Shown here piece after piece: positions 2,804 to 49,980 of a DNA stretch of 64,000 nt. Positions within the stretch are counted from its first letter, which is position 1; each line of letters starts with the position of its first letter. This stretch comes from an uncultured Bacteroidales bacterium (lineage in GTDB: Bacteria > Bacteroidota > Bacteroidia > Bacteroidales > FEN-979), in assembly GCA_963768805.1 (NCBI GenBank), contig CAVYJI010000019.1, positions 277,991-341,990 on the forward strand, read 5' to 3'. A program made the translations under genes and the position numbers. The notes beneath the pieces are model-generated. The model ran no database searches and was not told where the DNA came from. It saw only the letters and a program-made list of their open reading frames with translations.

Positions 2804-4138
2804 TTACTCATTCTCTTCATCAAACCACTTCTGGATCTTTTCAATGAACGATTCAGAGAATTTTTTTCCTGACTTATCGGGATCTTTTGGCTTTTTCTCC
2901 CTGATCTTTTTGGTTTTTGCAGGTTTCGCTTCGGGTTCCAGAACTTCTTCGTTGACCAGGGGTTTCATTTTTTCTTTTTCTTTCTCGTAGCGATCTATCC
3001 CTACAACAACAAGGCCTATCCCGGTCGCGTACATCGGGCTGGCCATTTCCCCCGGAACATCGTTTGCAAGATGCTCATTAGGATACCCGATGCGCGTATC
3101 CATGCCTGTTTTGAATTCTGTGAGCTGTGCAATGTGTTTCAATTGTGCACCACCGCCTGTCAGCACAATACCCCCAATAAGTTTTTTCTCATAGCCTGAA
3201 TTCTTGATCTCAAAATAGATGTATTCAATGATCTCTTCCATCCTGGCCTGGATAATATTAGCCAGGTTGCGGATGCTGATCTCCTTGGGAGGGCGTCCTC
3301 TCAAGCCTGGAATGGCTACAATTTCTTCTTCACGGTTTTCACTGGCCAGTGCAGAACCGAATTTGACTTTCAGCTCTTCTGCATGTTTCTTGATGATCGA
3401 GCAACCTTCTTTAACATCTTCTGTGATAATATTACCACCAAGTGGGACCACAGCCGTATGCCTGATGATCCCTTCATGAAAGATGGCTATATCTGAAGTT
3501 CCACCACCGATATCCACAAGAACAACACCGGCTTCTTTTTCTTCTTCACTCAGCACGGCTTCAGCTGAAGCAATAGGTTCCAGGATCAGGTCGACTACTT
3601 CAAGGTCGGCTTTCCTTACGCATTTATAGATGTTTTTTGCTGCAGCCGTTTGTCCTACGATAATATGAAAATTGGCCTCCAGGGAACTGCCCATCATACC
3701 TTTCGGGGATTTGTCAACCAGATCTCCGTTGAGGCTAAATTGCTGGGGGATGACTTCAATGATCTCTTCTCCCGGGTTCATATTCAGGTTATACATGCTG
3801 TTGACCAGGGCATCGATCTCTTCCTGGCTGATCTCCACTTCACTGTCCTTACGGATGGTACTGCCGTGATGCTGAAGACTTTTAATATGTTGGCCGGCGA
3901 TCCCAACATTCACATACCGGATATCGACACCTGATTTCTGAGAGGCTTCCCTGATCGCATCCCTGATCGATTGTACCGTGTTTTCAATGTTGGAAACGAC
4001 GCCTCTTTTCACCCCGATAGATGGAACCTTGCCATATCCGAGGATCTGGATCTTTCCGAATTCATTTTTATGCCCGACAATGACTGCAATCTTCGTCGTG
4101 CCAATATCTAACCCTACAATTATTTCTGATGTTTTCAT
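2804..4138 (-). CDS. ftsA: Cell division protein FtsA (actin-like ATPase)
   Basis: VGLDIGTTKIAVIVG and VLVDIGGGTSDIAIF phosphate-binding motifs. It lies between ftsQ and ftsZ. Confidence 0.95.
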   Translation of the reverse strand: MKTSEIIVGLDIGTTKIAVIVGHKNEFGKIQILGYGKVPSIGVKRGVVSNIENTVQSIRDAIREASQKSGVDIRYVNVGIAGQHIKSLQHHGSTIRKDSEVEISQEEIDALVNSMYNLNMNPGEEIIEVIPQQFSLNGDLVDKSPKGMMGSSLEANFHIIVGQTAAAKNIYKCVRKADLEVVDLILEPIASAEAVLSEEEKEAGVVLVDIGGGTSDIAIFHEGIIRHTAVVPLGGNIITEDVKEGCSIIKKHAEELKVKFGSALASENREEEIVAIPGLRGRPPKEISIRNLANIIQARMEEIIEYIYFEIKNSGYEKKLIGGIVLTGGGAQLKHIAQLTEFKTGMDTRIGYPNEHLANDVPGEMASPMYATGIGLVVVGIDRYEKEKEKMKPLVNEEVLEPEAKPAKTKKIREKKPKDPDKSGKKFSESFIEKIQKWFDEENE

Positions 4139-4234: not shown

Positions 4235-5038
4235 TTAAATTTTTGAACATATAACCTGATTTTTGAATTTTATATTGATGATATTATACTTGCTCCATCC
4301 GGTTTTGCTCAACCCATACCTGTAAAAGACAAACAATCGTTCAAATTTATCCTGCAGGTTTTCTGCGTCTCCCATCAGGATGGTATGTGCTCCAATCCTT
4401 GGGATCAGTTCAAATTCTCCATCCGGCTCAACATAGATCTGCTCGATCTGTGCTTTCAGGAATCTATCTTTGGTTATAAAGGCTGATAACTTATAAAGAT
4501 TGTTCATCACGGAATGGCAGGTTGCCGAATCGTTCTTCCTGCCCGGGCCGTTAAGGTAACATGTATTCTTCGAGAAGGGCTCGGGTATTGATCCTGTGGC
4601 TACGAGAACCCTGGCGGAAAAAGCAGGATTCAGGGGAAGAAGATTGCCCAGTCCATCGAGGTAAAAACTCTCACCCTTTTCATTAAAGATCCTCAGGATA
4701 GGTTGGCGCTGGATGACATCTATTTCAACAACGCCATCCAGATTCATGTAAACCTGTGCATCTTCAACATAGGGTTGATTTCTGATCTCACGCTCAATAT
4801 GCTCAAAATCGATCGTGCCCAATTGCTGACCTTTTAGCAGGTTCCCGGTCAGTCTGACTACCTGGTAGATGTCTGATTGAGTAACGAGGACATCCGCTTT
4901 CCCATAATCGATGCGGATAATGTACTTTTTACAAACTTCGCTATTGTATTCGGTAGTGGTAAATCCAAGTAAAACAAAAAGGCCGCCTGTCATAAGCCCC
5001 CATATTGTAATTTCAAGGATCTTCAGGAATTTCTTCAT
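4235..5038 (-). CDS. ftsQ: Cell division protein FtsQ (single N-terminal TM plus POTRA-like region)
   Basis: 267 aa with one N-terminal TM helix (ITIWGLMTGGLFVLLGF). It occupies the conserved position between murC and ftsA. Confidence 0.8.
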   Translation of the reverse strand: MKKFLKILEITIWGLMTGGLFVLLGFTTTEYNSEVCKKYIIRIDYGKADVLVTQSDIYQVVRLTGNLLKGQQLGTIDFEHIEREIRNQPYVEDAQVYMNLDGVVEIDVIQRQPILRIFNEKGESFYLDGLGNLLPLNPAFSARVLVATGSIPEPFSKNTCYLNGPGRKNDSATCHSVMNNLYKLSAFITKDRFLKAQIEQIYVEPDGEFELIPRIGAHTILMGDAENLQDKFERLFVFYRYGLSKTGWSKYNIINIKFKNQVICSKI

Positions 5039-5044
5039 TTTCTT

Positions 5045-6433
5045 CTATTCCTTATTTATAAATAGTTCCCTGATAGGTTTTACCAGTTGGTCAATATCAC
5101 CTGCTCCCAGGGTAAGCAAGACTTCGGGCTTTTCGGATCTCAATTCATCAAGGAGGTCATCTTTTCTGCATATTTTTTTATCCAGGAGCTGCACTTTTTG
5201 CAGCAAAAAAGCCGAATCAATCCCGGGAACCGGGTTTTCCCTGGCAGGATAGATCTCGAGAAGGATCAGCTTATCTAGTAATTCGAGACTGCGGGCAAAT
5301 TCATCCGCGAAGTCACGTGTACGGGTGAAAAGATGCGGCTGGAAGATCCCGGTGATCTTCCTGGCAGGGTAGAGTTCCCTGGTTGCGCGTATACAGGCTT
5401 TCAGCTCCTCAGGATGATGGGCATAGTCGTCGATATAGACAAAATCATTACGGATCACCTGGAAATCAAAACGACGCTCAACGCCCTTAAATGTTGCCAA
5501 GGACTTTGAAATAACTTCATCCGTTATTCTTAAAGCAGAGGCAACTGCTGAAGCTGCGATGGCATTTTCAAGATTGAATTTACCGGGCAATGCGAGGACG
5601 ATTCCAGGGATTGTTCGTGCGGGGGTAACCAGGTCAAAAACAAACCGGCCATATTCCAGGCGTATCTTCTCCGGGTAAAAATCAGCATCACCTTCCGAAT
5701 AATAACTCTGAACAGTATATTTATCAATGTTTTCAGGTAAAATATCGACACCTTTTTTCAAGATCAATGTACCGTCTTCTTTCACATGAGATGTGAACTC
5801 TCCAAAGGATCGCCTGACTTCATCAATATTTCCATAAATGTCAAGATGGTCTGCATCGGCAGAAGTGATCACGGCAATATCGGGATAAAGTTGCAAGAAT
5901 GAACGGTCAAATTCATCTGCTTCAACAACGAAATAAGCAGGATTGCCATCTGGTTGTTTAATTGCTGAGCCGGAGATAACAAGATTTGATTGATAGTTCT
6001 TTGAGATCCCCCCGAGAAAAGCAATACAGTCAATTCCTGCAGTCTTTAGCAGGTGGGCAACCAGTGTTGTGATGGTAGTCTTGCCATGGGTCCCTGCAAC
6101 AGCAATTGTATTGGCATTCTCTGTGATCATCCCGAGAACCTCCGATCTTTTTTTCAGGGTGAAGCCTTTTTCGATCACGAATTGAAGTTCTTTATTGTCT
6201 TTGGGAAGGGCAGGAGTATAGATGACAAGGTCAGGATGAGCCGGGACCAGTTCCGGGTCATCATCGAAATGTACCGAAATTCCTTCATCAATAAGCATGG
6301 TCGTCAGTGTCGTGGGGGTCCTGTCATACCCCGAAACCTCAGCTCCATGCAGGTGGAAATACCGGGCCAGGGCGCTCATACCGATTCCCCCAATGCCCAG
6401 AAAATAAACCGACCTGTATTGATGGACGTTCAT
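5045..6433 (-). CDS. murC: UDP-N-acetylmuramate--L-alanine ligase
   Basis: N-terminal GIGGIGMSALA and the Mur ligase P-loop AVAGTHGKTTITT; dcw synteny. Confidence 0.95.
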   Translation of the reverse strand: MNVHQYRSVYFLGIGGIGMSALARYFHLHGAEVSGYDRTPTTLTTMLIDEGISVHFDDDPELVPAHPDLVIYTPALPKDNKELQFVIEKGFTLKKRSEVLGMITENANTIAVAGTHGKTTITTLVAHLLKTAGIDCIAFLGGISKNYQSNLVISGSAIKQPDGNPAYFVVEADEFDRSFLQLYPDIAVITSADADHLDIYGNIDEVRRSFGEFTSHVKEDGTLILKKGVDILPENIDKYTVQSYYSEGDADFYPEKIRLEYGRFVFDLVTPARTIPGIVLALPGKFNLENAIAASAVASALRITDEVISKSLATFKGVERRFDFQVIRNDFVYIDDYAHHPEELKACIRATRELYPARKITGIFQPHLFTRTRDFADEFARSLELLDKLILLEIYPARENPVPGIDSAFLLQKVQLLDKKICRKDDLLDELRSEKPEVLLTLGAGDIDQLVKPIRELFINKE

Positions 6434-6441
6434 GATTAGTT

Positions 6442-7593
6442 TTATTCTTTTTTCCTGATAAGTTTCATAGTTTCAATTGCAATGATATTGGCGGCATTTG
6501 GAAGTGCCATACTTCGAATGTTCCTGCTCAGCTCATCCTGTAGTTTATTGTCAGCAGCCAGTTTCTTTACAAGGTCAAAGAGATTCTCTTCGGACTCCTG
6601 GTCCTTCAGCATAAGTGCAGCCGACTTTTTTGCCAGTGCTTCTGCATTTTTTGTCTGGTGGTCTTCGGCCACATTTGGCGAAGGAATAAGGATAACCGGC
6701 TTGCCAACAATACATAATTCAGAAATTGCGATCGCTCCCGCCCGTGAAATGATGATATCGGCTGCTGCATAGGCCAGATCCATCCTATCGATAAAATGAT
6801 AACTGGAAACATCTTTACTGTTCGATATTCTTTGGTCCGAGCTAATAGCGTCGAAATAATATTTCCCCGTTTGCCATAATAATTGAAAGGGCTCTTCTCC
6901 GCTCTTCTGATCCAGGTAATGTAAAACACTCTTATTAATTGTCCCTGCACCAAGGCTTCCCCCGATGATCAGCACAACTTTCTTATCTTTCTTAAGATTA
7001 AAATGTCCGAGCGCCATGGTTTTGTCAGCCGGTGACATGATATCCTTCCGTACCGGATTTCCCGTGAGAATGATCTTACTGGCGGGGAAAAATTTTTCCA
7101 TTCCATCATAAGCGACGCAAATCTTATCAGCCTTGCTGCTCAGCAACCTGTTTGTTATCCCCGGAAAGGAATTTTGTTCCTGGATCAGAACAGGTATTTT
7201 TTTTCTCACTGCAGCCCTGAGGGTAGGGCCACTTGCATAACCTCCAACCCCGACCACCACATCCGGCTTAAATTGTGCAAGGATCCTTTGCGCCGTAGCC
7301 AAACTGAAAATGACCTTAACCGGAAATACCAGGTTTTTAAGTGTGATGCGGCGCTGAAGGCCGCTTATCCAGAGGCCGCGGATCTGATACCCTGCCTGCG
7401 GCACTTTTTCCATCTCCATCCTGCCTTTTGCACCAATAAAAAGAATTTCCATACCCGGATCAAGTATTTTAAGAGCGTCGGCAATGGCAATAGCGGGGAA
7501 AATATGTCCTCCAGTTCCACCTCCACTTATAATAATCCTTGTCATATCTTCAGAATATTTATCAGCTGGTTGCAGCAGCCAGTGTCCCTTCAC
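6442..7593 (-). CDS. murG: Undecaprenyldiphospho-muramoylpentapeptide beta-N-acetylglucosaminyltransferase; the likely start is Met at 7545
   Basis: IIISGGGTGGHIFPAIAIA G-loop and a GT28 C-terminal domain; synteny. Confidence 0.95.
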   Translation of the reverse strand: MKGHWLLQPADKYSEDMTRIIISGGGTGGHIFPAIAIADALKILDPGMEILFIGAKGRMEMEKVPQAGYQIRGLWISGLQRRITLKNLVFPVKVIFSLATAQRILAQFKPDVVVGVGGYASGPTLRAAVRKKIPVLIQEQNSFPGITNRLLSSKADKICVAYDGMEKFFPASKIILTGNPVRKDIMSPADKTMALGHFNLKKDKKVVLIIGGSLGAGTINKSVLHYLDQKSGEEPFQLLWQTGKYYFDAISSDQRISNSKDVSSYHFIDRMDLAYAAADIIISRAGAIAISELCIVGKPVILIPSPNVAEDHQTKNAEALAKKSAALMLKDQESEENLFDLVKKLAADNKLQDELSRNIRSMALPNAANIIAIETMKLIRKKE

Positions 7594-8758
7594 TCAGAAT
7601 TTCAACTTCTGTACCGTCCTTGGTCTCGATCTCTATTCTTCTGCTTACACTTAAAATGATGCCGATAGAGATACATGTAAACCATATTGAGGTGCCTCCC
7701 ATACTTATCAATGGCAATGTCTGACCGGTAACAGGAAACAGATGAACAGCCACAGCCATATTGATCATAGCCTGGAATACCAAACTAAAACCAATCCCAA
7801 TCGCGAGAAATGCCCCGAAGTTACCCTGGCATTTCGTGGTTATCCTGACGACCCGAAAAAAGAGGATACAGTACAGCAGTACCACGAATCCTCCTCCAAG
7901 GATCCCATATTCCTCGACGATAATTGCAAAAATGAAGTCAGAATAGGGATGGGGCAAAAAATTACGCTGTGTACTTCTCCCCGGTGATTTGCCAAAAATT
8001 CCTCCAGAAACGATGGCAATCTTTGACTGTTCTACCTGGTAATTGGCATCTTCATCTGTTTTTTCTTTATTCAGGAAATGATCCACGCGGTTGATCCAGG
8101 TTCCTCCACGCGGAAAAAGGCTGGGGGCTACCTTTGCCAGGCTGAAGATAAGTACAATGGCCACAATGCCCAGGCCTACCAGGGAAAAAATATACTTCAA
8201 CGAGATCCTGCCAATAAACATCAACACTATGCTGGTCACAAAGAGGATTGCTGCTGTGGAAAAGTTGGCCGGCAGGATAAGTGTACAAATGAAAATGGCA
8301 GGGATGATAACCGGTAAAAACCCTGATTTAAAATGTTTGATCTCTTCCTGTTTTTTGCTCAGCACACGGGCAAGGTACATGATCAGGAAAAGCTTGGCAA
8401 TATCAGAACTCTGGAAGGTAAGATTGATAATTGGCACTGTGAGCCACCGGTTTGCCTCGTTAAGATTTGTTCCTGACAGAAGTGTGATCAACAATAACGG
8501 AACCGTCAGGATCAACCCAATCTGCGAGATCCTTGAAAAATAGGTATATTTGATAAGATGTGTCGCATACATCAGCATGATCCCGAAACCCAGGATCACA
8601 AAATGTTTAAAAAGGTAATATTCAGTGTTCCCTCCCTGTTTTTTATAAGCCAGAGTCCCAGTGGAACTGTAAACCGCAAGCAGCGAAAATATGCAAAGGA
8701 TGATCACGACAACCCAGATCACCACGTCTCCTTTTACATTTTTAAAATATTTAACCAT
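7562..8758 (-). CDS. ftsW: SEDS-family peptidoglycan glycosyltransferase FtsW
   Basis: Polytopic membrane protein with PHPYSDFIFAIIVEEYG and GQTLPLISMGGTS SEDS motifs. It lies between murD and murG. Confidence 0.9.
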   Translation of the reverse strand: MVKYFKNVKGDVVIWVVVIILCIFSLLAVYSSTGTLAYKKQGGNTEYYLFKHFVILGFGIMLMYATHLIKYTYFSRISQIGLILTVPLLLITLLSGTNLNEANRWLTVPIINLTFQSSDIAKLFLIMYLARVLSKKQEEIKHFKSGFLPVIIPAIFICTLILPANFSTAAILFVTSIVLMFIGRISLKYIFSLVGLGIVAIVLIFSLAKVAPSLFPRGGTWINRVDHFLNKEKTDEDANYQVEQSKIAIVSGGIFGKSPGRSTQRNFLPHPYSDFIFAIIVEEYGILGGGFVVLLYCILFFRVVRITTKCQGNFGAFLAIGIGFSLVFQAMINMAVAVHLFPVTGQTLPLISMGGTSIWFTCISIGIILSVSRRIEIETKDGTEVEILSEGTLAAATS

Positions 8759-8769
8759 GATCCTGAAGA

Positions 8770-9318
8770 TTACAGATATTTTACTGCTTTTTTAAAGGCG
8801 TTGCCACGTTCTTCATAATCTTTAAAGAGATCAAAACTTGGACAACCCGGTGAAAGGAGAATAACATCTCCCATTGTCCCCGCAACATAGGCCAGTTCAA
8901 CAGCTTCAGCCATTGTTGAAGCGTCCGTTATGGGAATTTTCAGATCGGACATTGACAAAATAAAATTTGTACTGTCGATCCCGAGAAAAATGATTGATTT
9001 GACTTTAGCGCGGAGCAAAGGTTTAAGCAGCGTATAATCGATACATGAATCTTTTCCTCCAGCGATCCAGATGACAGGTTTCGACATATTCTCCAGTGTG
9101 TACCAGGTAGAATTGATATTTGTTGACCTGGAATCATTGATAAATTCTATCCCATGCACATTCGTGACTAATTCCATCCGGTGCTCCATTTGTTGGAAAT
9201 CACAAAAACACTCCTTGATGAAATTACTTCTGACTTCATTAATCCGGGCTGAAATTGATGCTGCCATGGAACAATGCACGCCAGGATGTCCTTGTAAAGC
9301 CAATGTTTCTAATGTCAT
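8770..9318 (-). CDS. murD: UDP-N-acetylmuramoylalanine--D-glutamate ligase, C-terminal fragment only (truncated murD; possible pseudogene)
   Basis: 182 aa, matching only the last part of MurD (..F.QMEHRMELV..GIEFINDSRSTN.., ILLSPGCPSFDLFKDYEERG). The Rossmann-like N-domain and the GTNGKT ATP-binding domain are absent. Only 39 bp separate its ATG from the mraY stop, and an in-frame stop lies upstream. Confidence 0.8.
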   Translation of the reverse strand: MTLETLALQGHPGVHCSMAASISARINEVRSNFIKECFCDFQQMEHRMELVTNVHGIEFINDSRSTNINSTWYTLENMSKPVIWIAGGKDSCIDYTLLKPLLRAKVKSIIFLGIDSTNFILSMSDLKIPITDASTMAEAVELAYVAGTMGDVILLSPGCPSFDLFKDYEERGNAFKKAVKYL

Positions 9319-9357
9319 GTTTTCAGATTTACAGAGTTCATCTATGGATTACTGCTT

Positions 9358-10608
9358 TTACCTCAATTTTAATGTTACGATTGTCAATACTGCCAGCATG
9401 ATACCGATAATGAAAAACCGGATCACAATTTTTGATTCGTGGTATCCTTTGATCTGGTAATGATGATGCAGGGGAGACATCAGGAAGATCCTGCGACCGG
9501 CTCCAAACCTGCTTTTCGTATATTTAAAGTATGCCACCTGGAGCACGACCGAAAAACTCTCAATGAGAAAAACCCCACAGAAGATCGGAATCATGATCTC
9601 TTTACGGATCATAATGGCAAAGACAGCTATCACACCGCCCAGTGCAAGACTACCTGTATCGCCCATGAATACCTGTGCAGGATATGAATTATACCAGAGA
9701 AATCCGATGCAGGCACCGATGAAAGCGCTGATATAAATTGCCAGCTCACCTGTGTCCGGGATATACATAATGTTCAGATAATTGGCAAAAACAATATTAC
9801 CCGAGACATAAGCAAGGATCCCCAATGTCACTCCAATGATAGCAGAACTCCCGGTCGCGAGTCCATCAAGACCGTCTGTCAGGTTAGCGCCATTTGATAC
9901 GGCAATGATGATGAAGATGATAATAGGAATGAAGACGAGGAAGGTCCATTTACTGAAACCTTTTCCAATCCAAGAGATCAGGACTGAGTAATCGAATTCA
10001 TTATTTTTCAAAAAAGGAATAGTGGTTTTTGTGGATTTAATTGGGAACTGGTACATTTTTGAATGATCAGGGTTCCCCTCTACATTAAAAACCTCAGAAG
10101 CCGGAACATATGCCTGTTTGCTGGTTTTCTCACGGATAACGATATCCTTGCTGAAAAACATGGTAATCCCGACAATCAAACCTAACCCGATCTGGCCCAG
10201 TATCTTGAACTTAGCTGCAAGTCCTTTTTTATCTTTACGAAATACTTTTATGTAATCATCCACAAATCCTATTATTCCCAGCCATATTGTTGAAACAAGA
10301 ATGAGAAGCACATATATGTTATCCAGCTTAGCGAGAAGAAGAGTCGGGACAAGGATTGCAGCAAGGATAATCAACCCGCCCATTGTTGGCGTCCCTTGTT
10401 TAGCGGTTTGCCCTTCCAGTCCGAGATCTCTAATCGTTTCACCGACCTGTTTTTTACGGAGGAAGCCGATCAACCTTTTTCCGATGATCATCGAGATAAA
10501 GAGCGATAAAATGAGCGCCATTGCTGCCCTGAAGGAGATGTATTGGAAAACACCTGCTCCCGGAAGATCTATTGCTTCATGCAGCCAGATAAACAGATAG
10601 TACAGCAT
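9358..10608 (-). CDS. mraY: Phospho-N-acetylmuramoyl-pentapeptide transferase
   Basis: [12 protein letters not shown] and [11 protein letters not shown] motifs, polytopic membrane protein, synteny. Confidence 0.97.
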
Positions 10609-10625: not shown

Positions 10626-12089
10626 TTATGTTGATACTAAGTCCAAAGCTTCTTTCAAAATCATTTTATCATCGAACGGGAATCTTACACCTTTTATCTC
10701 CTGGTATGTCTCATGCCCCTTGCCGGCTACCAGGATAATATCTCCAGGGTGAGCAAGGGAACAGGCAGTTTTGATAGCTTCTTTGCGGTTTGTGATCACA
10801 AGCACTTTACTCATAAACTGAAGCTCGATTCCTTTTTTCATATCGTCGAGTATGGCTTCAGGTTCTTCAAAACGAGGATTATCGGAAGTAAGGATCACCC
10901 TGTCGCTCTGGTGGCATGCAATTTTAGCCATCACGGGTCGCTTGGCAGCATCACGGTTTCCTCCTGCTCCGACAACTGTAATGATCTTTTGTTTACTGTT
11001 GCGGATCGATTGAATGGTTCCAAGGACATTCTGCAGGGCATCAGGAGTATGTGCATAATCCACGATGGCAGTTATGTCATTCTTTGTCCTGATATAATTA
11101 AACCGGCCATCGACCGGTTCACAAAGACTAAGGCTAATCAGGATATTCTGCTTTTCTTCACCAAGCAGCATTGCAGTAGCGTAGACTGCCAAAAGGTTAT
11201 AAGCATTGAAACTACCGATCAGCTTAAACCAGGAATCCGTTCCATCCAGGGAAAGATGTAAGCCACTGAATTGGTTCTCAATGATTTTGCATCTGAAATC
11301 TGCTATCGATTGCATGCTATATGTTGAAACGGATGCTTTTGTATTTTGCACCATCGTCTTCCCATTTTTGTCGTCTTTGTTGATCAGTGCAAACGCATTA
11401 CCAGGCAGGTTATCAAAAAATGTCTTTTTTGCCTTCAGGTAGGCATCAAAGGTTTTATGATAATCCAGGTGATCATGTGTAAGGTTGGTGAAGACGCCTC
11501 CCCTGAAACTCAGGCCTGAAACCCTGTGCTGAACCAATGAATGAGAGCTTACTTCCATAAAACAATGAGTGCATCCATCACCGACCATTTGTGCCAGTAA
11601 TTCATTCAGGTGAACCGGATCAGGAGTTGTATGAGTAGATGGGATGACCTGGTCCTGAATTTTATTCTGTACGGTGGAAATCAATCCGGTTTTATAGCCA
11701 AGCTTTTGAAAAAGATGATGCAAAAGGGTAACCGTTGTTGTCTTTCCATTTGTGCCAGTGACGCCAATAAGGTTCAGAAGTGCAGAAGGATTCCCATAAA
11801 AGTTCGAGGCAATGACAGCCTTGGCATAGCTGCTGTCATTTACAAGAATAAAAGTGGCATTCCCTTCCTGGTTATCCGGAATTTTTTCACAGACTACTGC
11901 AACTGCTCCTGACTTTATTGCTTCGGGGATATACTGATGTCCATCAAGTGCAGTTCCTTTAATAGCAAAGTAGAGACAGCCTTTTTCTACGGTCCTGGAA
12001 TCAAATTTCAGTGAATATATTTCGTTTTCCAGTGATCCGGAAACTTTCTTCACTTCAATCTTACCCAGTATATCTTTCAGGTACTTCAT
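10626..12089 (-). CDS. murE: UDP-N-acetylmuramoyl-L-alanyl-D-glutamate--2,6-diaminopimelate ligase
   Basis: GVTGTNGKTTTV P-loop and the SDNPRFE motif (DNPR, typical of DAP-adding MurE); synteny. Confidence 0.95.
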   Translation of the reverse strand: MKYLKDILGKIEVKKVSGSLENEIYSLKFDSRTVEKGCLYFAIKGTALDGHQYIPEAIKSGAVAVVCEKIPDNQEGNATFILVNDSSYAKAVIASNFYGNPSALLNLIGVTGTNGKTTTVTLLHHLFQKLGYKTGLISTVQNKIQDQVIPSTHTTPDPVHLNELLAQMVGDGCTHCFMEVSSHSLVQHRVSGLSFRGGVFTNLTHDHLDYHKTFDAYLKAKKTFFDNLPGNAFALINKDDKNGKTMVQNTKASVSTYSMQSIADFRCKIIENQFSGLHLSLDGTDSWFKLIGSFNAYNLLAVYATAMLLGEEKQNILISLSLCEPVDGRFNYIRTKNDITAIVDYAHTPDALQNVLGTIQSIRNSKQKIITVVGAGGNRDAAKRPVMAKIACHQSDRVILTSDNPRFEEPEAILDDMKKGIELQFMSKVLVITNRKEAIKTACSLAHPGDIILVAGKGHETYQEIKGVRFPFDDKMILKEALDLVST

Positions 12090-12117: not shown

Positions 12118-14247
12118 TTATCCATTCCCCAGTCCCAGGTTGAGGACAACAACGGAACCTTTTATATACATTCTTCCCGGAGTTATCGATTGTTTAATCA
12201 CATTACCTTTTCCGTTCAGCAAGACTTTCAGTCCCATCTGTTCCAGGAGAAATACAGCATCTTTCAACCCCATGCCTGTGACATCCGGCATAGTTCCCTG
12301 GTAAACAGCCGATGGCATCAGCACAATTGATGAATTATCTGAGACGGGAACTGCCCATAAGGATGCAGGGCTTACGGGTTTTGTTTTAATATTCAACCAC
12401 GCATAGGCCTCTTCCAGATCCTTCTGGGCGCCTGCATATGCACGGGGGATTATCAGGCCGCTTGTATCCAGGGGAGGAGGATTGTTGATCTCATGAAGAG
12501 TGGCAAAGATGTGGTCGGCAATCTCTTTGAATACCGGAGCGGCTACGCTACCCCCATAATATTTTCCTTTCGAAGGATTGTTGACGACCACAATAATAGA
12601 GTACTTCGGATGGTCGGCGGGGAAATACCCTACAAAAGATCCTTTATATTTAATATTTTTTGTTTCCTGTCCATAGCCTTTGTTATTCATGGCAACCTGG
12701 GCAGTTCCGGTTTTCCCGGCAACCTTATACAGTGGATTCTTCAGGGCAGTCCCGGTTCCGCGTTCCACAACTCCTTCCAGAAGTGAATGTACTTTTTCAA
12801 GTGTAGACGGCGAACAGATATGAGGATTAATGATTTCCGGCTGGAACGATTTAACCACCTGTCCATTTTTCCTGATTTCCCTCACAAAAAGGGGCTTTAC
12901 CATTACGCCGTTATTAGCTACTGCGTTGTACAGGGTCAGGGTCTGCAAAGGAGTTATGGCGACTTCATAGCCAATAGCCATCCAGGGCAGCGATAAGGCT
13001 GACCACCATTTGCTTTTCGTATCCTTGATATATGGTCTGCCTTCACCACTTATCTGGAGGTTCTGAGGAAGGTTAAGAGACATCCGATAGAGACCATCGA
13101 TATATTTCTGCGGATCATCCGAATAGGCAGAATAGATCAGTTTAGAAGTCCCGACATTAGAAGATTTCTCAAAGACCTGGCGAGCCATCAGGGTTCCTGT
13201 CAACTTATGGGCATCGGTCATTATTCTTCCATGGTAATTGACCGTGCCATTGCCCAGGTTGACGGGTTGATCAAGGCTTATCTTACCGTCTTCAAGTCCA
13301 ACGAGAAAGGATGCCAGTTTAAATGTAGATCCGGGTTCAGAACTTTCCGCTATGGCATAATTGAATACCTCTTCATATTCACCTTTTGGATTTTTGCCAA
13401 GATTGATGATCGCTTTGATATAACCGGTCTTCACTTCCATCACAATGGCACATCCATGGTCGGCGCTGTCAGCAATAAGTTCTTTTCGCAAGGCAGATTC
13501 CGCGAGATCCTGCAAATTGATATCCAAGGTTGTAATGATGTCGTCGCCATTCTGAGGGTCAACTTCGTTATCAATATCAACAGGCATCCAGCTTCCATTG
13601 CCGACCCTGCGCATGAGCCTTTTACCACCTACTCCCTGGAGATAATCGCTGAAAGAACCTTCAAGGCCAACATAAACTGCCTGTGAGGCCTCTGTATTCT
13701 CATATCCTATTGTACGCCTGGCAAGGTTCTTAAAGGGAAGTTCACGCTGGAATTGGGACATTACTATCATTCCTCCTTTATAGGTCCCCAGTCTGAGGAT
13801 CGGGAATTTCCGCATCAGTTTGAGTTGAGGATAGGTAACATCGCGGTGGATCAGGAGGAACCCATTCCCATTCCTTCTTCCTTCCCACAGGAGATTTTTA
13901 TATTCGGAAGCTTTTTTATCATTGAACAATTTTGCGAGGTGAATTGCAAGTGAATCCACCTGGGTATTAAAAAGATCGTCACTGATGAGGTCGGAACCAA
14001 TGTCCATGCGGATATCAAAAATAGGAATGGAAGTAGCCAGCAGTGTCCCATCATCTGAGCAGATATTGCCGCGCATGGCATCTACAGGGAAAAAGCGCAT
14101 TTCCTGTTTCCGGGCTTTTTCCATCAGCGCTTTCCCTTCCGTTGACCTGATGTAGATCGCTTTTCCTATTATAGTCAAGCCGAAGAGAAGGATCCCGAAG
14201 TATACAATATAAACGCGTAACAATATGTCTTTCTTGACCTCTTTCAT
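12118..14247 (-). CDS. ftsI: Penicillin-binding protein (class B transpeptidase, FtsI/PBP3-like)
   Basis: N-terminal TM helix, the transpeptidase triad STFK / SSN / KTGTA, and a C-terminal PASTA-like domain; synteny. Confidence 0.93.
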   Translation of the reverse strand: MKEVKKDILLRVYIVYFGILLFGLTIIGKAIYIRSTEGKALMEKARKQEMRFFPVDAMRGNICSDDGTLLATSIPIFDIRMDIGSDLISDDLFNTQVDSLAIHLAKLFNDKKASEYKNLLWEGRRNGNGFLLIHRDVTYPQLKLMRKFPILRLGTYKGGMIVMSQFQRELPFKNLARRTIGYENTEASQAVYVGLEGSFSDYLQGVGGKRLMRRVGNGSWMPVDIDNEVDPQNGDDIITTLDINLQDLAESALRKELIADSADHGCAIVMEVKTGYIKAIINLGKNPKGEYEEVFNYAIAESSEPGSTFKLASFLVGLEDGKISLDQPVNLGNGTVNYHGRIMTDAHKLTGTLMARQVFEKSSNVGTSKLIYSAYSDDPQKYIDGLYRMSLNLPQNLQISGEGRPYIKDTKSKWWSALSLPWMAIGYEVAITPLQTLTLYNAVANNGVMVKPLFVREIRKNGQVVKSFQPEIINPHICSPSTLEKVHSLLEGVVERGTGTALKNPLYKVAGKTGTAQVAMNNKGYGQETKNIKYKGSFVGYFPADHPKYSIIVVVNNPSKGKYYGGSVAAPVFKEIADHIFATLHEINNPPPLDTSGLIIPRAYAGAQKDLEEAYAWLNIKTKPVSPASLWAVPVSDNSSIVLMPSAVYQGTMPDVTGMGLKDAVFLLEQMGLKVLLNGKGNVIKQSITPGRMYIKGSVVVLNLGLGNG

Positions 14248-14672
14248 GGGTTCCTGTGAAGCGTATCAGTTTCTTTTTTTAAAAGAGCTTTTGAATAAAA
14301 AATCTTATATGGTGGTATTGTAGTTTCTTTTATACCCAGTTTTCCCACCTTTTTCGCGATCTCGGTTTGCTTGCACAGGTCGAGCATTTTTGCTTTTGCA
14401 GTAATTGACTGGAATCGTAGTTCTTTCAGCTCAGATTTTATCTTTTCTATTTGCTTAAAGGTCTTTTCCGTGTAGTAGGTATTACTGATGTAAAACAAGG
14501 CAAGAATAGCCAAGAAGATGAGAAATGGCACGTTATTGAGAACGGCGTGTTTTGACAGAAGATCGCCGCCGATGATATTTTGGAGCCAGTGGGAAATCTT
14601 GCCGGGTTTCCTGACCGGTCGGATCTCTCCCTTCTGGGGTTCTTGCGGAATATTGATACCTGGCTCTTCCAT
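14244..14672 (-). CDS. ftsL: FtsL-like cell division membrane protein
   Basis: 142 aa with one TM helix (VPFLIFLAILALFYISNTYY) followed by a coiled-coil-like segment. It holds the conserved slot between rsmH and ftsI, with a 4-nt overlap onto ftsI. Confidence 0.6.
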   Translation of the reverse strand: MEEPGINIPQEPQKGEIRPVRKPGKISHWLQNIIGGDLLSKHAVLNNVPFLIFLAILALFYISNTYYTEKTFKQIEKIKSELKELRFQSITAKAKMLDLCKQTEIAKKVGKLGIKETTIPPYKIFYSKALLKKETDTLHRNP

Positions 14673-14675
14673 TTG

Positions 14676-15569
14676 TCAGATCTTTTCAGCAATGCGTAAA
14701 CGTGCACTCCGTGCCCTGGGGTTCACATCGATCTCTTTCTCCTTAGGAACAATGGGTTTGCGGTTGATAACTGATAACGGGATGACGGGGTTCCCATAGA
14801 AGTCTTTTTCAAGGGTTCCTTCAAAGTTCCCCGAACGGAAATAGTTCTTTACAAGCTTATCTTCAAGGGAATGGTATGAAATAACAACAAGACGTCCACC
14901 TTTTTTCAGAACATCGTTTGCCTGGATCAGGAATTCCTTCAGTGCTTCCAGTTCCTGGTTAACTTCTATTCTCAATGACTGGAAGACCTGTGCGAAAAAT
15001 TTATTTTCTTTTCCTCTTTCTGCGGCAGGCATCAGCACTTTCCTTAATTCCATTGTAGTGTTAACCGGCTTCTCTTTTCGTGCTGCTACGATGAGTCTCG
15101 CTATTTTTTTTGAATTCGGCAAGTTGCCAAATTCACGGAAAAGTGCTGATAATTTTTCTTCAGGATAGCGATTCACTATATCTTTTGCAGATAGTTTTTT
15201 ATCCCTGTTCATGCGCATATCCAATTCCCCTTCAAGACGTGTTGAAAATCCTCTTCCGGGCTGGTCAATCTGGTAAGATGAGATCCCAAGATCGGCGAGG
15301 ATCCCATCGACGGGAATAGATTTGTAAAGCTTTAGGAGGTTTCGGAGGTACCTGAAATTATTGTGGATCAAGATCAATCTGTTATCATTAACCTTATTGT
15401 CAAGTGCGTCTTCATCCTGGTCGAATGCAAATAATTTTCCATTTTTTAATTCTTTGAGGATTGCTATTGAATGACCGCCTCCGCCATAGGTTGCATCCAC
15501 GTATATACCATCTGGTCGTATCATCAGCGCCTTAATGGTTTCTTCCAGGAGAACGCTTTTATGAAACAT
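14676..15569 (-). CDS. rsmH: 16S rRNA (cytosine1402-N4)-methyltransferase
   Basis: YVDATYGGGGHS SAM motif, SYHSLEDKLVK, and a C-terminal NPRARSARLR. Confidence 0.95.
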   Translation of the reverse strand: MFHKSVLLEETIKALMIRPDGIYVDATYGGGGHSIAILKELKNGKLFAFDQDEDALDNKVNDNRLILIHNNFRYLRNLLKLYKSIPVDGILADLGISSYQIDQPGRGFSTRLEGELDMRMNRDKKLSAKDIVNRYPEEKLSALFREFGNLPNSKKIARLIVAARKEKPVNTTMELRKVLMPAAERGKENKFFAQVFQSLRIEVNQELEALKEFLIQANDVLKKGGRLVVISYHSLEDKLVKNYFRSGNFEGTLEKDFYGNPVIPLSVINRKPIVPKEKEIDVNPRARSARLRIAEKI

Positions 15570-16035
15570 CTTCCGGTTCTTCAGGTTTATTGAGTTTCCC
15601 CATCACTTTTTCCGCCAGGTTTGAATACTCTTCATCTGACATCTTAAGATGATGTTCATATTCCTCTTTTGCCCATATTTCAATGCGGTTCGAAAAGGCG
15701 GATAAGATCAGATCTTTATGAATCGACGCATATTCTAATAAAGTCTTAGGAATAAGTACCCGGTTACTGGTATCAAGTTGAACTTCAGTTGCCCCCCTGT
15801 TAAAATTGCGGGCAAAGATCCTGTGATCTTTAATAAACAGGTTAAGTTGATTAACCACCCTGCTGACCTCTGCCCACTCACTCATCGGGTACATGGTAAG
15901 GCAGTTCTCAAATCCCCGGTTGATGACAAATTTCTCCTGCGCTTCCGGAGGAATTTGTTTCTTCAGCCCGGCAGGAATGATGATCCGTCCTTTGTCGTCG
16001 ATCCTGCATTCATATTCACCGTGAAGAATGGTCAT
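15559..16035 (-). CDS. mraZ: Transcriptional regulator MraZ. The start is set at Met 16035; the 176-aa track ORF runs upstream into the operator.
   Basis: Two SpoVT/AbrB-like halves (DDKGRIIIP and DTSNRVLIP). It is the first gene of the dcw cluster. Confidence 0.92.
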   Translation of the reverse strand: MTILHGEYECRIDDKGRIIIPAGLKKQIPPEAQEKFVINRGFENCLTMYPMSEWAEVSRVVNQLNLFIKDHRIFARNFNRGATEVQLDTSNRVLIPKTLLEYASIHKDLILSAFSNRIEIWAKEEYEHHLKMSDEEYSNLAEKVMGKLNKPEEPEDVS

Positions 16036-16072
16036 GACTTGATAAAAATTTGAAGGTGTAAATATAGAATAT

Positions 16073-16099
16073 TCCCCACTATTCCCCACCTGTCCCCAC
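16073..16099 (-). promoter_or_regulatory. Putative MraZ operator: three direct GTGGGGA repeats with exact 10-bp phasing
   Basis: The plus strand reads TCCCCAC at 16073-16079, 16083-16089 and 16093-16099, which is 38-64 bp upstream of the mraZ start. This matches the known architecture of MraZ boxes: direct G-rich repeats at 10-bp spacing. Confidence 0.6.
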
Positions 16100-17935: not shown

Positions 17936-18196
17936 ATGAAACTGCGAAAAAATGTTGCTGTAAGTGAAGCGGGTTTACTTTTCAATCCGGTGACCGGGGA
18001 ATCTTTTTCGGTTAACCCGATTGGTGTTGATATCATTAATCTGATCCGGGAAGACAAAGGGTTGGAGTACATCAGTAAATTCATACTTGCGAAGTATGAA
18101 ACAGATAAGGCCACATTTGAAAAAGATTATAATGATTTTATCGGGATCCTGGGACATAACAACCTTATAGAGACAAATGAAGAAAAGAAAGCTTAA
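17936..18196 (+). CDS. PqqD-family small protein (peptide-chaperone/RRE-like)
   Basis: 86 aa. Shows the LFNPVTGESFSVNPIGVDIINLI... pattern typical of PqqD-like winged-helix proteins. It overlaps the next gene by 20 nt. Confidence 0.65.
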   Translation: MKLRKNVAVSEAGLLFNPVTGESFSVNPIGVDIINLIREDKGLEYISKFILAKYETDKATFEKDYNDFIGILGHNNLIETNEEKKA

Positions 18197-19223
18197 CATT
18201 GCCATCACCGGGTTGAATGCGATAGACAGTCCGGGTCCCGGTATTCCTGTAATAAGAGCGCTGAGAGAGGCATCATCATTCGATGTAAGGATCATTGGTC
18301 TTTCCTATGAATCGCTTGAGCCGGGCATTTATATGCACGACCTTGTGGACCGCACCTATTCAATTCCTTATCCCACAGCCGGGACCGACACTTTACTTGC
18401 CCGTCTTGAATATATTCATGAAAAGGAGAAACTTGATGTGATCATCCCAAACTTCGATTCAGAACTTTTCCCGTTTATCAAACTGGAAATCAAACTCAGG
18501 GCACTTGGCATTCACATGTTCCTGCCGACGATTCATCAGTTTGAAGAGAGACAAAAGGTTAATCTCAATGAATTTGGGAAGAAGTACAACTTAAAAATCC
18601 CGAAAAGCAAAGCTGTTTGGGATCCAAATAACCTGTCCGGACTCAAGTCAGAATTCTCATTCCCCATGATCGTTAAAGGGAAATTTTACGAAGCCTCAGT
18701 TGCATACAGCATCGACCAGGTAAAAAGTTATTTCAATAAAATAAGCGCAAAATGGGGACTTCCCATCATCATCCAGGAATTCATCCTTGGGACAGAATAC
18801 AATGTGACCGGGCTAGGCGACGGCAAAGGCAATACAATTGCAGCTGTTCCGATGCGCAAACAATATATCACAGACAAGGGAAAAGCATGGGGAGGCATTT
18901 CGATCGCTGATGAGAAGATGATTGATATGACCCGCAAATTCCTGAAAACCACAAAATGGCGGGGCGGTTTTGAGTTAGAGCTGATGAAAAACAAAGACGA
19001 TGAGCTTTACCTGTTAGAAATAAACCCCAGACTGCCGGCATGGATCTACCTTGCAGTAGGAGTCGGACAAAATATTCCAGAAGCACTGGTCAACCTGGCC
19101 ATGGGAGTAAAAGTGAAACCTTTTACCACCTACGACGTAGGAAAAATGTTCATACGTTATTCATGGGATATGATCGTCGACAGGGAAGAATTCGAGAAGA
19201 TCAGCATTTACGGAGAGTTATAA
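18177..19223 (+). CDS. ATP-grasp domain ligase (carboxylate-amine ligase type)
   Basis: 348 aa with the ATP-grasp core: FPMIVKGKF, IIIQEFILGTEYNV, and ELYLLEINPRLPAW (the E-x-N Mg/ATP motif). Confidence 0.85.
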   Translation: MKKRKLNIAITGLNAIDSPGPGIPVIRALREASSFDVRIIGLSYESLEPGIYMHDLVDRTYSIPYPTAGTDTLLARLEYIHEKEKLDVIIPNFDSELFPFIKLEIKLRALGIHMFLPTIHQFEERQKVNLNEFGKKYNLKIPKSKAVWDPNNLSGLKSEFSFPMIVKGKFYEASVAYSIDQVKSYFNKISAKWGLPIIIQEFILGTEYNVTGLGDGKGNTIAAVPMRKQYITDKGKAWGGISIADEKMIDMTRKFLKTTKWRGGFELELMKNKDDELYLLEINPRLPAWIYLAVGVGQNIPEALVNLAMGVKVKPFTTYDVGKMFIRYSWDMIVDREEFEKISIYGEL

Positions 19224-19240
19224 CAATAAAAACATAAGAG

Positions 19241-20602
19241 ATGAACAAGTTGCGATATGAACGGCCTGTAATTAAGAAACTTGAGACCGGAATGCCAAAT
19301 AAATTCGGAACAAGGACAGAATATGAACCCATGATCCACATCGATGGTGTCGCAGTGAAAGATCTGATCAAAGAATTTGGCTCACCGTTATTTGTTATCT
19401 CAGAAAGGACCATCCGTGAAACAATAAAGAAGGCAAAAAAGGCTTTTGGTACCCGTTATCCTAAAGTTCAGTTTGCCTGGTCGTATAAGACCAATTATCT
19501 AAATGCTGTCTGCAGTATTTTCCATCAGGAAGGATCCTGGGCAGAAGTGGTATCGGGTTTTGAATACGAAAAAGCCATCAAACTGGGAGTAGATGGCAGG
19601 AAGATCATTTTTAACGGTCCTGATAAAAGTGAAAAAGATCTTACCAGGGCAATTACCAACGATTCTCTTATACATATTGATCATCTTGATGAATTATATT
19701 CCATAACAGAACTGGCTGATAAGCTTAAAAAACGTCCGCGAGTGGCTGTAAGGGTCAATATGGATACGGGGGTATATCCTATGTGGGACCGATTCGGGTT
19801 TAACTATGAAAACGGCCAGGCATGGGATGCCATCAACAAGATCATGCATTCAGAAAAGATGGAACTGGTCGGACTTCATTGCCATATCGGTACATTTATG
19901 TTTTCACCCTTTGCATACAGCACTGCAGCATCCAAGCTTGTCGAACTGGCACTTGCCATCGAACAGAAATTCAAGCATGAAATTCAATATATCGATATGG
20001 GAGGCGGGTTTGCTTCAAGGAACACACTGAAAGGATCCTACCTTCCGGGTTCCGACTCCAATCCAACTTTTGATGATTTTGCAGAAGCAATTTCCACAGC
20101 ACTGATAAACGGTAATTTCAAAAAAAACAAGCTGCCTTTACTTATTCTTGAAACCGGCCGTGCCTTGATTGATGAGGCTGGTTATTTGCTGGGAACCGTG
20201 ATCTCGAACAAGCGTTCAAGCTCCGGCCGTCGTAATACAATCATCGATGTCGGGGTTAATATCCTCTTTACATCTTTCTGGTATGATCACAAGATCACAC
20301 CGGCACAACCGTTCACACATTATTCCGAAGACACCTGCGTGTTTGGGCCGCTTTGCATGAACATCGATGTGATCCGCGAAAGCGCCAACCTGCCGCTGCT
20401 CAACATGGGAGACCATCTGGTGATCCACAACGTAGGCGCTTACAACATGACACAGTGGATGCAGTTCATTACTTTAAGGCCAAACGTGGTGCTGATAGAC
20501 ATGGACGAGAAACCACATCTGATCAGAATCAAGGAATCGCTGGAGAATATGAACGACATGGAGCGGATACCTTCATATCTAAAAAACCGGGAAAAAGCGT
20601 GA
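19241..20602 (+). CDS. PLP-dependent decarboxylase, Orn/DAP/Arg decarboxylase (fold-type III) family
   Basis: FAWSYKTNY (PLP-lysine region), HCHIGT, IDMGGGF and ILETGRALIDEAGYL motifs, with an N-terminal barrel plus C-terminal beta domain layout. Confidence 0.88.
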   Translation: MNKLRYERPVIKKLETGMPNKFGTRTEYEPMIHIDGVAVKDLIKEFGSPLFVISERTIRETIKKAKKAFGTRYPKVQFAWSYKTNYLNAVCSIFHQEGSWAEVVSGFEYEKAIKLGVDGRKIIFNGPDKSEKDLTRAITNDSLIHIDHLDELYSITELADKLKKRPRVAVRVNMDTGVYPMWDRFGFNYENGQAWDAINKIMHSEKMELVGLHCHIGTFMFSPFAYSTAASKLVELALAIEQKFKHEIQYIDMGGGFASRNTLKGSYLPGSDSNPTFDDFAEAISTALINGNFKKNKLPLLILETGRALIDEAGYLLGTVISNKRSSSGRRNTIIDVGVNILFTSFWYDHKITPAQPFTHYSEDTCVFGPLCMNIDVIRESANLPLLNMGDHLVIHNVGAYNMTQWMQFITLRPNVVLIDMDEKPHLIRIKESLENMNDMERIPSYLKNREKA

Positions 20603-20656: not shown

Positions 20657-21214
20657 TTGGGTTTAAATAAACTGAAATATCTATTACCCTCATTTTTCTC
20701 CGGTATAGTTAACAGTTATACTCAGATCTTCTTTTCGAACAGCAGGGTCTTTGCACTTATCCTGATGGTGGTGTCTTTTTTAGATTTCTGGGCGGGCTTG
20801 AGCGGCCTGATCGCAATTGTAATTTCGAATACCCTTGCTTACCTGATAGGGTTCAACCGGTTAAACATAAAAAAAGGCTATTATGGGTTTAACAGCCTGT
20901 TGGTCGGTTTGGCGCTCGGCATATACTATCAGCCCGGACCTGAATTTTTCATTGTACTCGTTTTTTCTTCGGTACTTACCCTTTTCCTCACTATACTCCT
21001 TGAAGGGGTTATCGGAAAATACGGATTGCCTTTCCTGAGTATTTCATTTTTACTTGCTACCTGGCTTGTAAGCCTTGCCACGCGGCAATTTACCGCGCTT
21101 CATGTCAGCGAGCGGGGCATCTTTATGACCAACGAGATGTTTGCATTAGGCGGACACCGGATGGTATCATTCTATAACTGGCTGTTAAACCTGGATATCT
21201 ATGGCCCTCGTTAG
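20657..21214 (+). CDS. Urea-transporter (UT/SLC14)-like membrane protein, first half-channel (TTG start)
   Basis: 185 aa, about 5 TM helices. The FFSGIVNSYTQIFFSNS...AGLSGLIAIVISNTLAYLIGF pattern resembles the first pseudo-repeat of UT channels. It stops inside a 14-nt overlap with the next ORF. Confidence 0.55.
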   Translation: MGLNKLKYLLPSFFSGIVNSYTQIFFSNSRVFALILMVVSFLDFWAGLSGLIAIVISNTLAYLIGFNRLNIKKGYYGFNSLLVGLALGIYYQPGPEFFIVLVFSSVLTLFLTILLEGVIGKYGLPFLSISFLLATWLVSLATRQFTALHVSERGIFMTNEMFALGGHRMVSFYNWLLNLDIYGPR

Positions 21215-49179: not shown

Positions 49180-49980
49180 TCAAAATTTGTTACCCCGCAA
49201 TAAGATCCATCCACAATAATTGCCGCCACTTTTAATGGTGAGAACATAATAATAAGTTCCATCCGGCAAAGGACTGCCATCTTTCATTGTTCCTTTCCAG
49301 ACCTGGGAAATGTTATCGTAATGATCGAACCTGTTAACGATGTCTCCCCACCGGTTAAAGATAATGACTTTATTATCAGGAAAATTCTCTATGCAATCAA
49401 TGATCCATTTGTCGTTCAACCCATCCCCGTTAGGGGTTATTACGTTGTGAAAGACCAGGCAATCATTATTTATTTCAGGATTCAGGACCTTTATCCTCAC
49501 AGAATCAGTGCCCTTGCAACCATTAAGAAGGTCGGTGACCATGAGGATAAACAGGGTGTCATGAGTCAGTTTGACCGTTTCGGGGTCAAGCAAAGTGTCC
49601 TCGGTAAGAAGGGCAGATGGCTGCCAGAGCCAGGAATAGGTTCCTGAGCCGCCTGTTATGCTTCCATTCAATTTCGTAGTCGAATTATAAGGGATAGACT
49701 GGTCAGGCCCTGCATCAACAACTGGTGATCGCTGACTGATGAAATGAAATGGTAGAGATAAGGCACCGTCTCCGCAAGAGTTTATACCATATACGTAAAT
49801 ATCACCAGAGATGAATGAGGTATCGATTGAAACTGTAATACTGTTTGTTCCCAGTCCGTTAATGATTTTGAAAGCAGGAGGTAGCTGCCAGGAATAAGTC
49901 GTAGCAAAAGAAATAGTATCGACAGAAAAAGTTTCAGTTGCAGTAGCAGTGCAATGTTGTTGAGGACCGGTGATATTGCC
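49180..49980 (-). repeat. Dispersed repeat: 3' cassette shared with the adhesin gene at 27610-28410
   Basis: See 27610-28410. Same strand, offset 21,570 bp. Confidence 0.9.

Follow-up and report, generated by a model that had tools for sequence, protein, structure and literature searches.

What happens to a peptidoglycan ligase gene that survives as a fragment within an otherwise complete cluster? This question is raised by the division and cell wall (dcw) cluster of an uncultured Bacteroidales bacterium, in which the slot of murD, between mraY and ftsW, is occupied by an open reading frame (ORF) of only 182 codons. MurD is viewed as an antibiotic target and as an essential enzyme encoded in a single copy, and the sequences suggest that in these free-living bacteria, with genomes of ~5 Mb, the canonical murD slot may hold only a catalytically dead C-terminal stub. 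In the present study, the locus was analysed within a stretch of 64,000 nucleotides of contig CAVYJI010000019.1 (positions 277,991 to 341,990 of the forward strand; hereafter, the window), and the short murD was shown to be a real, selected and vertically inherited gene. The explanation that we favour for it, with modest confidence, is that the stub is a non-catalytic, MurD-derived pseudoenzyme kept for binding or scaffolding, and that the ligation of D-glutamate (D-Glu) is encoded elsewhere.

The short murD and its occurrence in independent assemblies

The short gene lies at window positions 8770-9318 on the minus strand, starts with ATG, encodes 182 aa and stands between full-length mraY and full-length ftsW. 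The spacers, 39 nt on the mraY side and 11 nt on the ftsW side, leave no room for a full-length murD between these genes. An earlier sequence-only reading of this DNA had described the same frame, and re-listing of the ORFs confirmed its coordinates. An assembly or collapse artefact and a recent deletion captured in a population were among the explanations offered there, and several observations speak against both. First, comparison with relatives recovered the same arrangement of mraY, a 182-aa frame and ftsW in at least seven independent assemblies from differing samples and sequencing technologies, long-read chromosomes included. Among them are an ENA short-read contig (L084), a JGI contig of 432,899 bp (L085), a Logan contig that is 100% identical to the window (L086), the long-read chromosome OY820914.1 of 5,265,860 bp (L001/L005), with the short gene at ~5,108,408-5,108,956, and two further GTDB metagenome-assembled genomes (MAGs; L004 and L030). 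Second, in an outgroup-rooted neighbour-joining tree of concatenated FtsI, MurE, MraY, FtsW and MurG (97 taxa, 2,335 columns, 100 bootstraps), the window, L084, L085, L005, L004 and L030 form a monophyletic clade in 100% of bootstraps; the short form is common to this clade, the members of which are 52-91% identical. Third, the ratio of nonsynonymous to synonymous substitution rates (dN/dS) of the short murD is 0.065-0.079 (Nei-Gojobori; window, L084 and L085), compared in the same genomes with 0.04 for mraY, 0.03 for ftsW, 0.06-0.15 for murE and 0.11-0.13 for murC, which indicates strong purifying selection. The short length itself, and nothing more, speaks for an artefact or a recent segregating deletion, and we regard that explanation as practically negligible. 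In a second assembly of an OY820914-like organism (L002, 5061-7199), ftsI falls into four ORFs and part of rsmH is missing, and the short murD is identical; the breaks in ftsI and rsmH look like long-read indel errors, so that the short murD is not an error of this kind.

The short form is also widespread. More than 120 clusters (90% identity) of 182-aa homologues, with 55-91% identity, were retrieved by a search of 5.8 billion proteins, all from Bacteroidales/Bacteroidota metagenome assemblies, and clustering at 50% leaves at least 14 short-form representatives. An alignment of 103 family members contains 24 invariant columns and no length variation. The short form is carried by the annotated MAGs NTW10, NTU98, PKG48 and D4R97 and by the assemblies with CAIYUC010000152 and JACZJJ010000162, the sister OY782677.1 has the full-length form, and JGI 3300037076 and ENA ERZ27256913 are examples of samples in which the clade is abundant. 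These homologues are currently annotated as MurD, as "cyanophycin synthetase" or as hypothetical, and such labels lead to mis-scored pathway completeness in MAGs. One 182-aa short form (P0418) is labelled by NCBI [quoted passage not shown]; its relatives are of Bacteroidota type, and the contig is therefore likely mis-binned.

The surrounding cluster has the Bacteroidota gene order, lies on the minus strand and is complete apart from murD, and the ORF and Pfam annotation thus agrees with the sequence-only reading, in which the other dcw genes had been called complete and in canonical order. The genes of the cluster and the features of the short gene, all on the minus strand, are as follows.

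15559-16089, minus: mraZ
14676-15569, minus: rsmH
14244-14672, minus: ftsL
12118-14247, minus: ftsI
10626-12089, minus: murE, 487 aa, bona fide ligase adding meso-diaminopimelate (NF001126, 634 bits against a cutoff of 373)
9358-10608, minus: mraY, full length, 416 aa (ORF and Pfam annotation)
9319-9357, minus: spacer of 39 nt between mraY and short murD, holding a second in-frame TAA
9315-9341, minus: upstream ORF of 8 codons (MNSVNLKT), its TGA overlapping the ATG of short murD
8770-9318, minus: short murD, a catalytically degenerate (as predicted) stand-alone C-terminal domain with the last strand and helix of the central domain as a remnant
9286-9318, minus: codons 1-11 of short murD (MTLETLALQGH), the start being a Met internal to full-length Bacteroidota MurD
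9271-9285, minus: codons 12-16 (PGVHC), degenerate remnant of the HNxxN adenine-binding motif
9046-9048, minus: codon 91, Ser at the position of E. coli K348
7562-8758, minus: ftsW, full length, 398 aa, beginning 11 nt past the stop of short murD
6442-7593, minus: murG
5045-6433, minus: murC, 462 aa, bona fide (TIGR01082, 367.5 bits against a cutoff of 335.1)
4235-5038, minus: ftsQ-like ORF of ftsQ size
2804-4138, minus: ftsA
1099-2745, minus: ftsZ

The 8-codon upstream ORF is present as the sequence-only reading had described it, and its proposed origin as a remnant of the original murD start did not survive the comparison: the ORF is found in the window, L084 and L086, has its ATG changed to ACG in L085 and is absent from L001, L004 and L030. 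Since it is not conserved, it is judged a chance feature and not a relic of the old start. Read-through or fusion of mraY with the short murD is ruled out by the second in-frame TAA in the spacer and by the variation of this spacer from 4 to 57 nt across relatives. FtsI (penicillin-binding protein 3) carries a C-terminal PASTA domain, which was considered as a marker of the clade with the short murD and rejected as a general trait of these Bacteroidota; tblastn found the PASTA segment in ~70 full-length Bacteroidota loci.

Domain content, residues and origin of the 182-aa protein

The only Pfam match in the short protein is Mur_ligase_C (PF02875), over residues 46-157, with 32.7 bits against a threshold of 28.4. 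The murD model TIGR01087, of 441 positions, is matched over 265-440 only, and the score of 156.8 bits is below the cutoff of 211.95; two other short forms score 171.8 (P0078) and 143.1 (P0194), and a full-length relative (P0292) scores 401.6 bits. In the alignment with E. coli MurD, M1 of the short protein corresponds to L256 and the homologous span to E. coli residues 256-437, and the profile of the short family covers residues 260-436 in E. coli MurD and 267-444 in S. agalactiae MurD. The fragment thus lacks the N domain, the P-loop and the greater part of the central domain, in agreement with the sequence-only reading, which had placed the start near the end of the central domain and the UDP-binding and ATP-binding parts outside the fragment. 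The AlphaFold2 model has a predicted local distance difference test score of 83 overall and of ~55 over residues 1-20. Its best Foldseek matches are domain 3 of MurD, with a root-mean-square deviation (rmsd) of 1.7-2.3 Å over ~140 residues (E ~6e-12, template modelling score normalised to the query 0.70 and rmsd 1.7 Å). In other words, the protein falls outside MurD by architecture, by score cutoff and by its HNxxN positions, it belongs with MurD by its dcw slot between mraY and ftsW, and it is a member of Mur_ligase_C by threshold score and domain-3 fold. At most, it works like domain 3 of MurD.

The residues kept and lost were compared column by column in 121 short and 76 full-length sequences, with E. 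coli numbering that allows for a 2-residue insertion in E. coli. H12, N13 and N16 (E. coli H267, N268 and N271) are present in 100% of the full-length sequences and variable in the short ones; the window protein has P12, G13 and C16 at these positions. N268 and N271 belong to the small set of residues known to be invariant throughout the Mur ligases. K91 (E. coli K348) is Lys in 100% of full-length sequences and is lost in the short family, in which Ser is commonest (34%). Likewise lost are N93 and C111 (both 100% in full-length sequences) and N116 (97%), and K64 (E. coli K319) is Arg in 55% of short sequences. On the other hand, the short family has kept H46/R47 (H301, R302), E49, N61/D62/S63 (D317), T66 (T321), S161 (S415), F162 (L416), Y168 (F422) and the ERG..F tail. 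In addition, M1, E4, L6, Q9 and G10 do not vary within the short family, and complete or near-complete invariance of E4, F38, N53 and P129 is peculiar to it. The branches of this family are, in length, ~1.85 times those of its sister lineage. According to a review, N271, R302 and D317 of MurD contact ADP, and T321, K348, S415, L416 and F422 contact D-Glu, with K348 pairing with its alpha-carboxylate (PMC9780078). Of the D-Glu-binding set, the window protein thus retains T66, S161, F162 and Y168 and has Ser in the place of K348. Homology to an enzyme, loss of the residues for catalysis and ongoing purifying selection are therefore combined in one protein, as in a pseudoenzyme.

The origin of the short gene was traced through a scan of genomes, which covered up to 600 stretches and the best 80 loci. 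In 77 of the 80 genome loci, the match lies within a murD of 443-475 aa, and residue 1 of the short protein falls on an internal Met, ~261-293 codons in. This Met stands in the context M[TS][IL]xELALQGKHN, aligned to residues 1-13 of the short protein, and is present in 96% of the 76 full-length Bacteroidota MurDs. The short gene is therefore what is left of an ordinary murD when ~790 nt are taken away, namely its 3' 549 nt, with translation beginning at the internal Met. At the same position, S. agalactiae MurD has Met (PDB 3LK7, residue 267) and E. coli MurD has Leu256.

Truncation seems to have happened more than once. Further forms of 181-185 aa, with still more degenerate N-termini, were found in a library of representatives at 50% identity, and two of them, P0194 (L089, a 40.6-kb contig) and P0154 (L176), sit between mraY and ftsW. 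In both loci, the flanking proteins and the short proteins themselves are nearer to full-length lineages than to the window clade. In the tree of flanking genes, monophyly of all bearers of the short form has 0% bootstrap support; L089 forms an exact clade with the full-length L022, L017, L062, L039 and L070 (Lentimicrobiaceae-like) in 100% of bootstraps, and in 53% L176 falls together with the full-length L007, L009, L025 and L094 and apart from the window clade and L089. It follows that murD truncation arose independently at least two times, and the sequences suggest that three independent truncations probably took place in neighbouring lineages, all of which lie within one 18-taxon Bacteroidales subclade. 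Each truncation, as read from the alignments, is at the same Met and would have been followed by the loss of HNxxN and of the Lys equivalent to K348, both of which are lost in all three short lineages. Four other proteins of 181-192 aa (P0155, P0189, P0193 and P0198) have the same Met start with HNxxN intact, and P0155, P0189 and P0193, not P0198, also have DKG intact; they are 62-87% identical to full-length proteins and are probably gene-calling or contig-edge artefacts, not true short forms. If "short MurD" were counted by length alone, such artefacts would raise the number.

These data also bear on the possibility that the gene is a decaying remnant, the frame of which stays open for operon reasons (coupled translation, protection of ftsW from polar effects or a promoter within the gene) and the protein of which has no function. 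In its favour, the spacer to ftsW is short (11-23 nt) in all lineages, the catalytic residues have decayed, and P0194 belongs to a fast-evolving family of its own, with 40-55% identity among its 182-aa members. However, a dN/dS of ~0.07, together with the 24 invariant columns in 103 sequences, points to selection on the amino acids beyond an open frame, the length has stayed constant at 181-182 aa over deep divergence, and conserved residues specific to the family have newly arisen. A functionless remnant is consequently considered decidedly improbable.

D-glutamate ligation and the possible role of the short protein

If the short protein is not a ligase, D-Glu must be added by another gene. 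Both murC and murE pass their equivalog cutoffs and are under selection, and the substrate of MurE is the product of MurD; hence, D-Glu ligation must be encoded elsewhere. To this extent, the earlier suggestion of a second murD copy holds, in that MurD activity from another locus remains necessary, and the gene itself was not located. Besides murC and murE, Pfam revealed no second Mur-ligase N or M domain in the 64-kb window, of which nearly every ORF of 150 aa or more was scanned, and no catalytic murD was found within 10 kb of the dcw cluster in relatives. The N-half of L012, the nearest full-length relative, served as the query of a protein search; among the matches listed there were only full-length proteins with at least 67% identity, none of them on the OY820914.1 chromosome, and the search, swamped by full-length proteins, is uninformative. 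When the N-half was aligned to metagenomes, the best 80 loci were all ordinary dcw murD genes, with mraY upstream and the C-half contiguous.

Several candidates for the catalytic gene were rejected. P0399 (HNY06464), which is named MurD and has an accession near those of the MAGs with the short form, is the ordinary dcw murD of another MAG, and P0146 and P0147, the full-length proteins nearest to the short-family profile, are ordinary dcw genes and not relocated paralogues. An ATP-grasp gene (PF15632/PF02655) stands beside a pyridoxal phosphate-dependent ornithine/diaminopimelate decarboxylase gene just upstream of the dcw cluster (window 18177-20602, plus strand) and shows weak similarity to MfnD and to an archaeal pseudomurein ATP-grasp enzyme. 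The ATP-grasp/decarboxylase cluster is also present in L084 (1-1523), with a PqqD-like ORF. These ATP-grasp, PqqD and decarboxylase genes were discarded as a MurD substitute, as in L085 and L001 their place is taken by an FG-GAP gene of the type IX secretion system.

The same scans bear on the idea that a canonical MurD is lacking altogether and that the addition of D-Glu, or of a dipeptide, falls to an enzyme that is non-homologous or highly divergent, with the stub possibly acting as a substrate-binding module. A second murD is absent from the scans of the window, the protein matches listed and the best 80 metagenome loci, and in a pattern scan with NSTW[FY][AT]LE, a near-universal motif of Bacteroidota MurD, OY820914.1 gave the short locus alone (best 80 loci). 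Moreover, the recurrent loss within one subclade suggests a shared predisposing replacement. Nevertheless, scans that reached up to 600 stretches and the best 80 loci cover too few to show absence, a second ordinary murD is the simpler expectation, and the loss of the K348 equivalent argues against canonical D-Glu binding by the stub, so that this idea appears quite unlikely. In a bolder form, canonical MurD would have been dispensed with in several uncultured Bacteroidales lineages, and D-Glu would be added to UDP-MurNAc-L-Ala in a way not yet described, by a non-homologous ligase or by another Mur ligase with the stub as a trans-acting module; only a small chance of being correct is given to this proposal. 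If it were correct, the convergent retention of 182 aa would show that the C-terminal domain of MurD has a function of its own, one that might pre-exist in full-length MurDs, for instance if translation also starts at the conserved internal Met.

The pseudoenzyme explanation has also to be weighed against a split MurD, in which a separate gene would encode the N-terminal and central domains and the 182-aa protein would be the D-Glu-binding subunit that completes the central domain of its partner. Three observations are unfavourable to a pseudoenzyme. The motifs HRxE, NDS[KR][AS]TN and SPxCxSFDLF..YE.RG are retained, so that much of the ligand pocket is conserved, including the equivalents of R302, D317, T321, S415 and F422 and the C-terminal D-Glu loop; the strongly conserved N-terminal 10 residues, MTLETLALQG, correspond to a beta-strand of the central domain in intact MurD; and a catalytic MurD was not found in the window, the flanks of relatives or the matches listed. 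To judge from these sequences, conservation of the pocket and of the N-terminal strand would also fit a protein that still works together with a partner contributing the remainder of a ligase, and purifying selection that matches that on the neighbouring enzymes, together with the requirement of the pathway for MurD activity, is consistent with such a partner. However, the HNxxN motif and the K348 equivalent, invariant in the 76 full-length sequences, have disappeared from the short family and, in separate events, from L089 and L176, and a split working enzyme is disfavoured because of this convergent loss of otherwise invariant catalytic residues. In addition, no gene with the N-half alone was present in the window, in the flanks of relatives, among the 120 protein matches listed or in the best 80 metagenome loci, which is a weak negative. 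The sequence-only reading had itself considered that close relatives might carry the short gene together with a separately encoded N-terminal part; the short gene does occur in relatives, and a separate N-terminal part was not found. The short protein, we infer, cannot act as a ligase alone and bears little resemblance to a functional half-enzyme, and a split MurD is rated as unlikely.

Herein, we propose the following course of events for the pseudoenzyme that we favour. First, the ancestor of an uncultured Bacteroidales clade would have lost the first ~265 codons of its dcw murD, and the translation start would have moved to the Met that is internal in nearly all Bacteroidota MurDs. The resulting 182-aa product would have kept the domain-3 fold and a part of the ligand pocket (the equivalents of R302, D317, T321, S415 and F422) and would have lost the N domain, the P-loop, the adenine-binding residues of HNxxN and the Lys that pairs with the alpha-carboxylate of D-Glu. 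Second, the gene would have been inherited vertically under strong purifying selection, and equivalent stubs would have arisen independently in neighbouring lineages. Third, D-Glu would be added by the product of a gene outside the dcw cluster, and the most plausible role of the stub might be ligand binding or docking in a membrane-proximal assembly of Mur ligases, MraY, MurG and FtsW. In T. maritima, MurD binds MurG and MreB, and the Mur enzymes have been suggested to form a multi-enzyme complex (PMC4929429, PMC6420597). A scaffold role is suggested by these reports of binding, by the fixed gene position and by the retained motifs of the ligand pocket and surface.

A function of the MurD C-terminal domain that is separable from ligation, such as binding of MurG, MraY or FtsW or sensing of a ligand, would be testable and would bear on the Mur multi-enzyme complex. 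As for the other D-Glu-adding enzyme, an ordinary paralogue would make the locus a tidy case of pseudoenzyme evolution, and anything else would mean a new step in the synthesis of peptidoglycan precursors.

Beyond the dcw cluster and its immediate upstream genes, several features of the window were recorded. A urea transporter-like domain (PF03253) is split over two overlapping ORFs on the plus strand, with profile positions 3-141 in ORF 20657-21214 and 160-290 in ORF 21201-22868, the latter running into Peptidase_M23; the arrangement may reflect a frameshift, a pseudogene or an unusual fusion. An ISL3-family transposase (30493-31752, plus strand) lies in a stretch of low GC content at 30-38 kb (GC 0.35-0.38, compared with ~0.42-0.45 elsewhere) and adjoins a Kelch protein with a type IX secretion tail, methyltransferases and a polysaccharide flippase-like gene; the stretch may be an acquired island. 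Giant surface proteins with PKD repeats are encoded at 37583-42610 (plus strand, 1675 aa), 42447-49160 (plus strand, 2237 aa) and 49180-53817 (minus strand, 1545 aa), in a region with GC of up to 0.53. The first two of these ORFs overlap by 164 nt and may be one frameshifted gene, and the third protein carries a CHU_C type IX secretion signal.

Comparison with known systems

No description of a truncated or split MurD was found in the literature, in which papers on Mur gene rearrangements cover fusions. The most direct comparison is with E. coli MurD, with which the short protein shares homology over residues 256-437, the domain-3 fold, the slot between mraY and ftsW and the equivalents of R302, D317, T321, S415 and F422. 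It differs from that enzyme in having no domain 1, no P-loop, ~80% of domain 2 missing and no equivalents of H267, N268, N271 and K348, and in scoring below the equivalog cutoff. The natural fusions MurE-MurF, MurC-Ddl and MurG-MurC are likewise rearrangements of Mur genes within dcw clusters and have been read as evidence for a multi-enzyme complex (PMC10214165, PMC4929429). In these fusions, however, complete enzymes gain a linkage, whereas the stub has been cut down to one domain and has lost catalytic residues. MurT of the MurT/GatD lipid II amidotransferase (PDB 6H5E), a weak fold match to the model of the stub, is also a repurposed Mur-ligase homologue and uses its C-terminal domain for protein-protein contact. 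Unlike the stub, MurT has kept a functional ATP-binding central domain, and no GatD-like partner gene stands next to the stub. A further likeness is found outside bacteria. The MurE-like protein of seed plants has lost its ligase function. This protein, PAP11, is part of the plastid-encoded RNA polymerase (PDB 8R6S, chain Q, a weak fold match to the stub model at Foldseek rank 40), and it too is a member of the Mur-ligase family that has been kept in a non-catalytic, structural role. PAP11 has retained three domains and works in a transcription complex, whereas the stub consists of the C-terminal domain alone and its gene still resides in a cell-wall operon. By analogy, the plant MurE-like protein is the nearest conceptual precedent for a MurD stub that may have outlived its catalysis.

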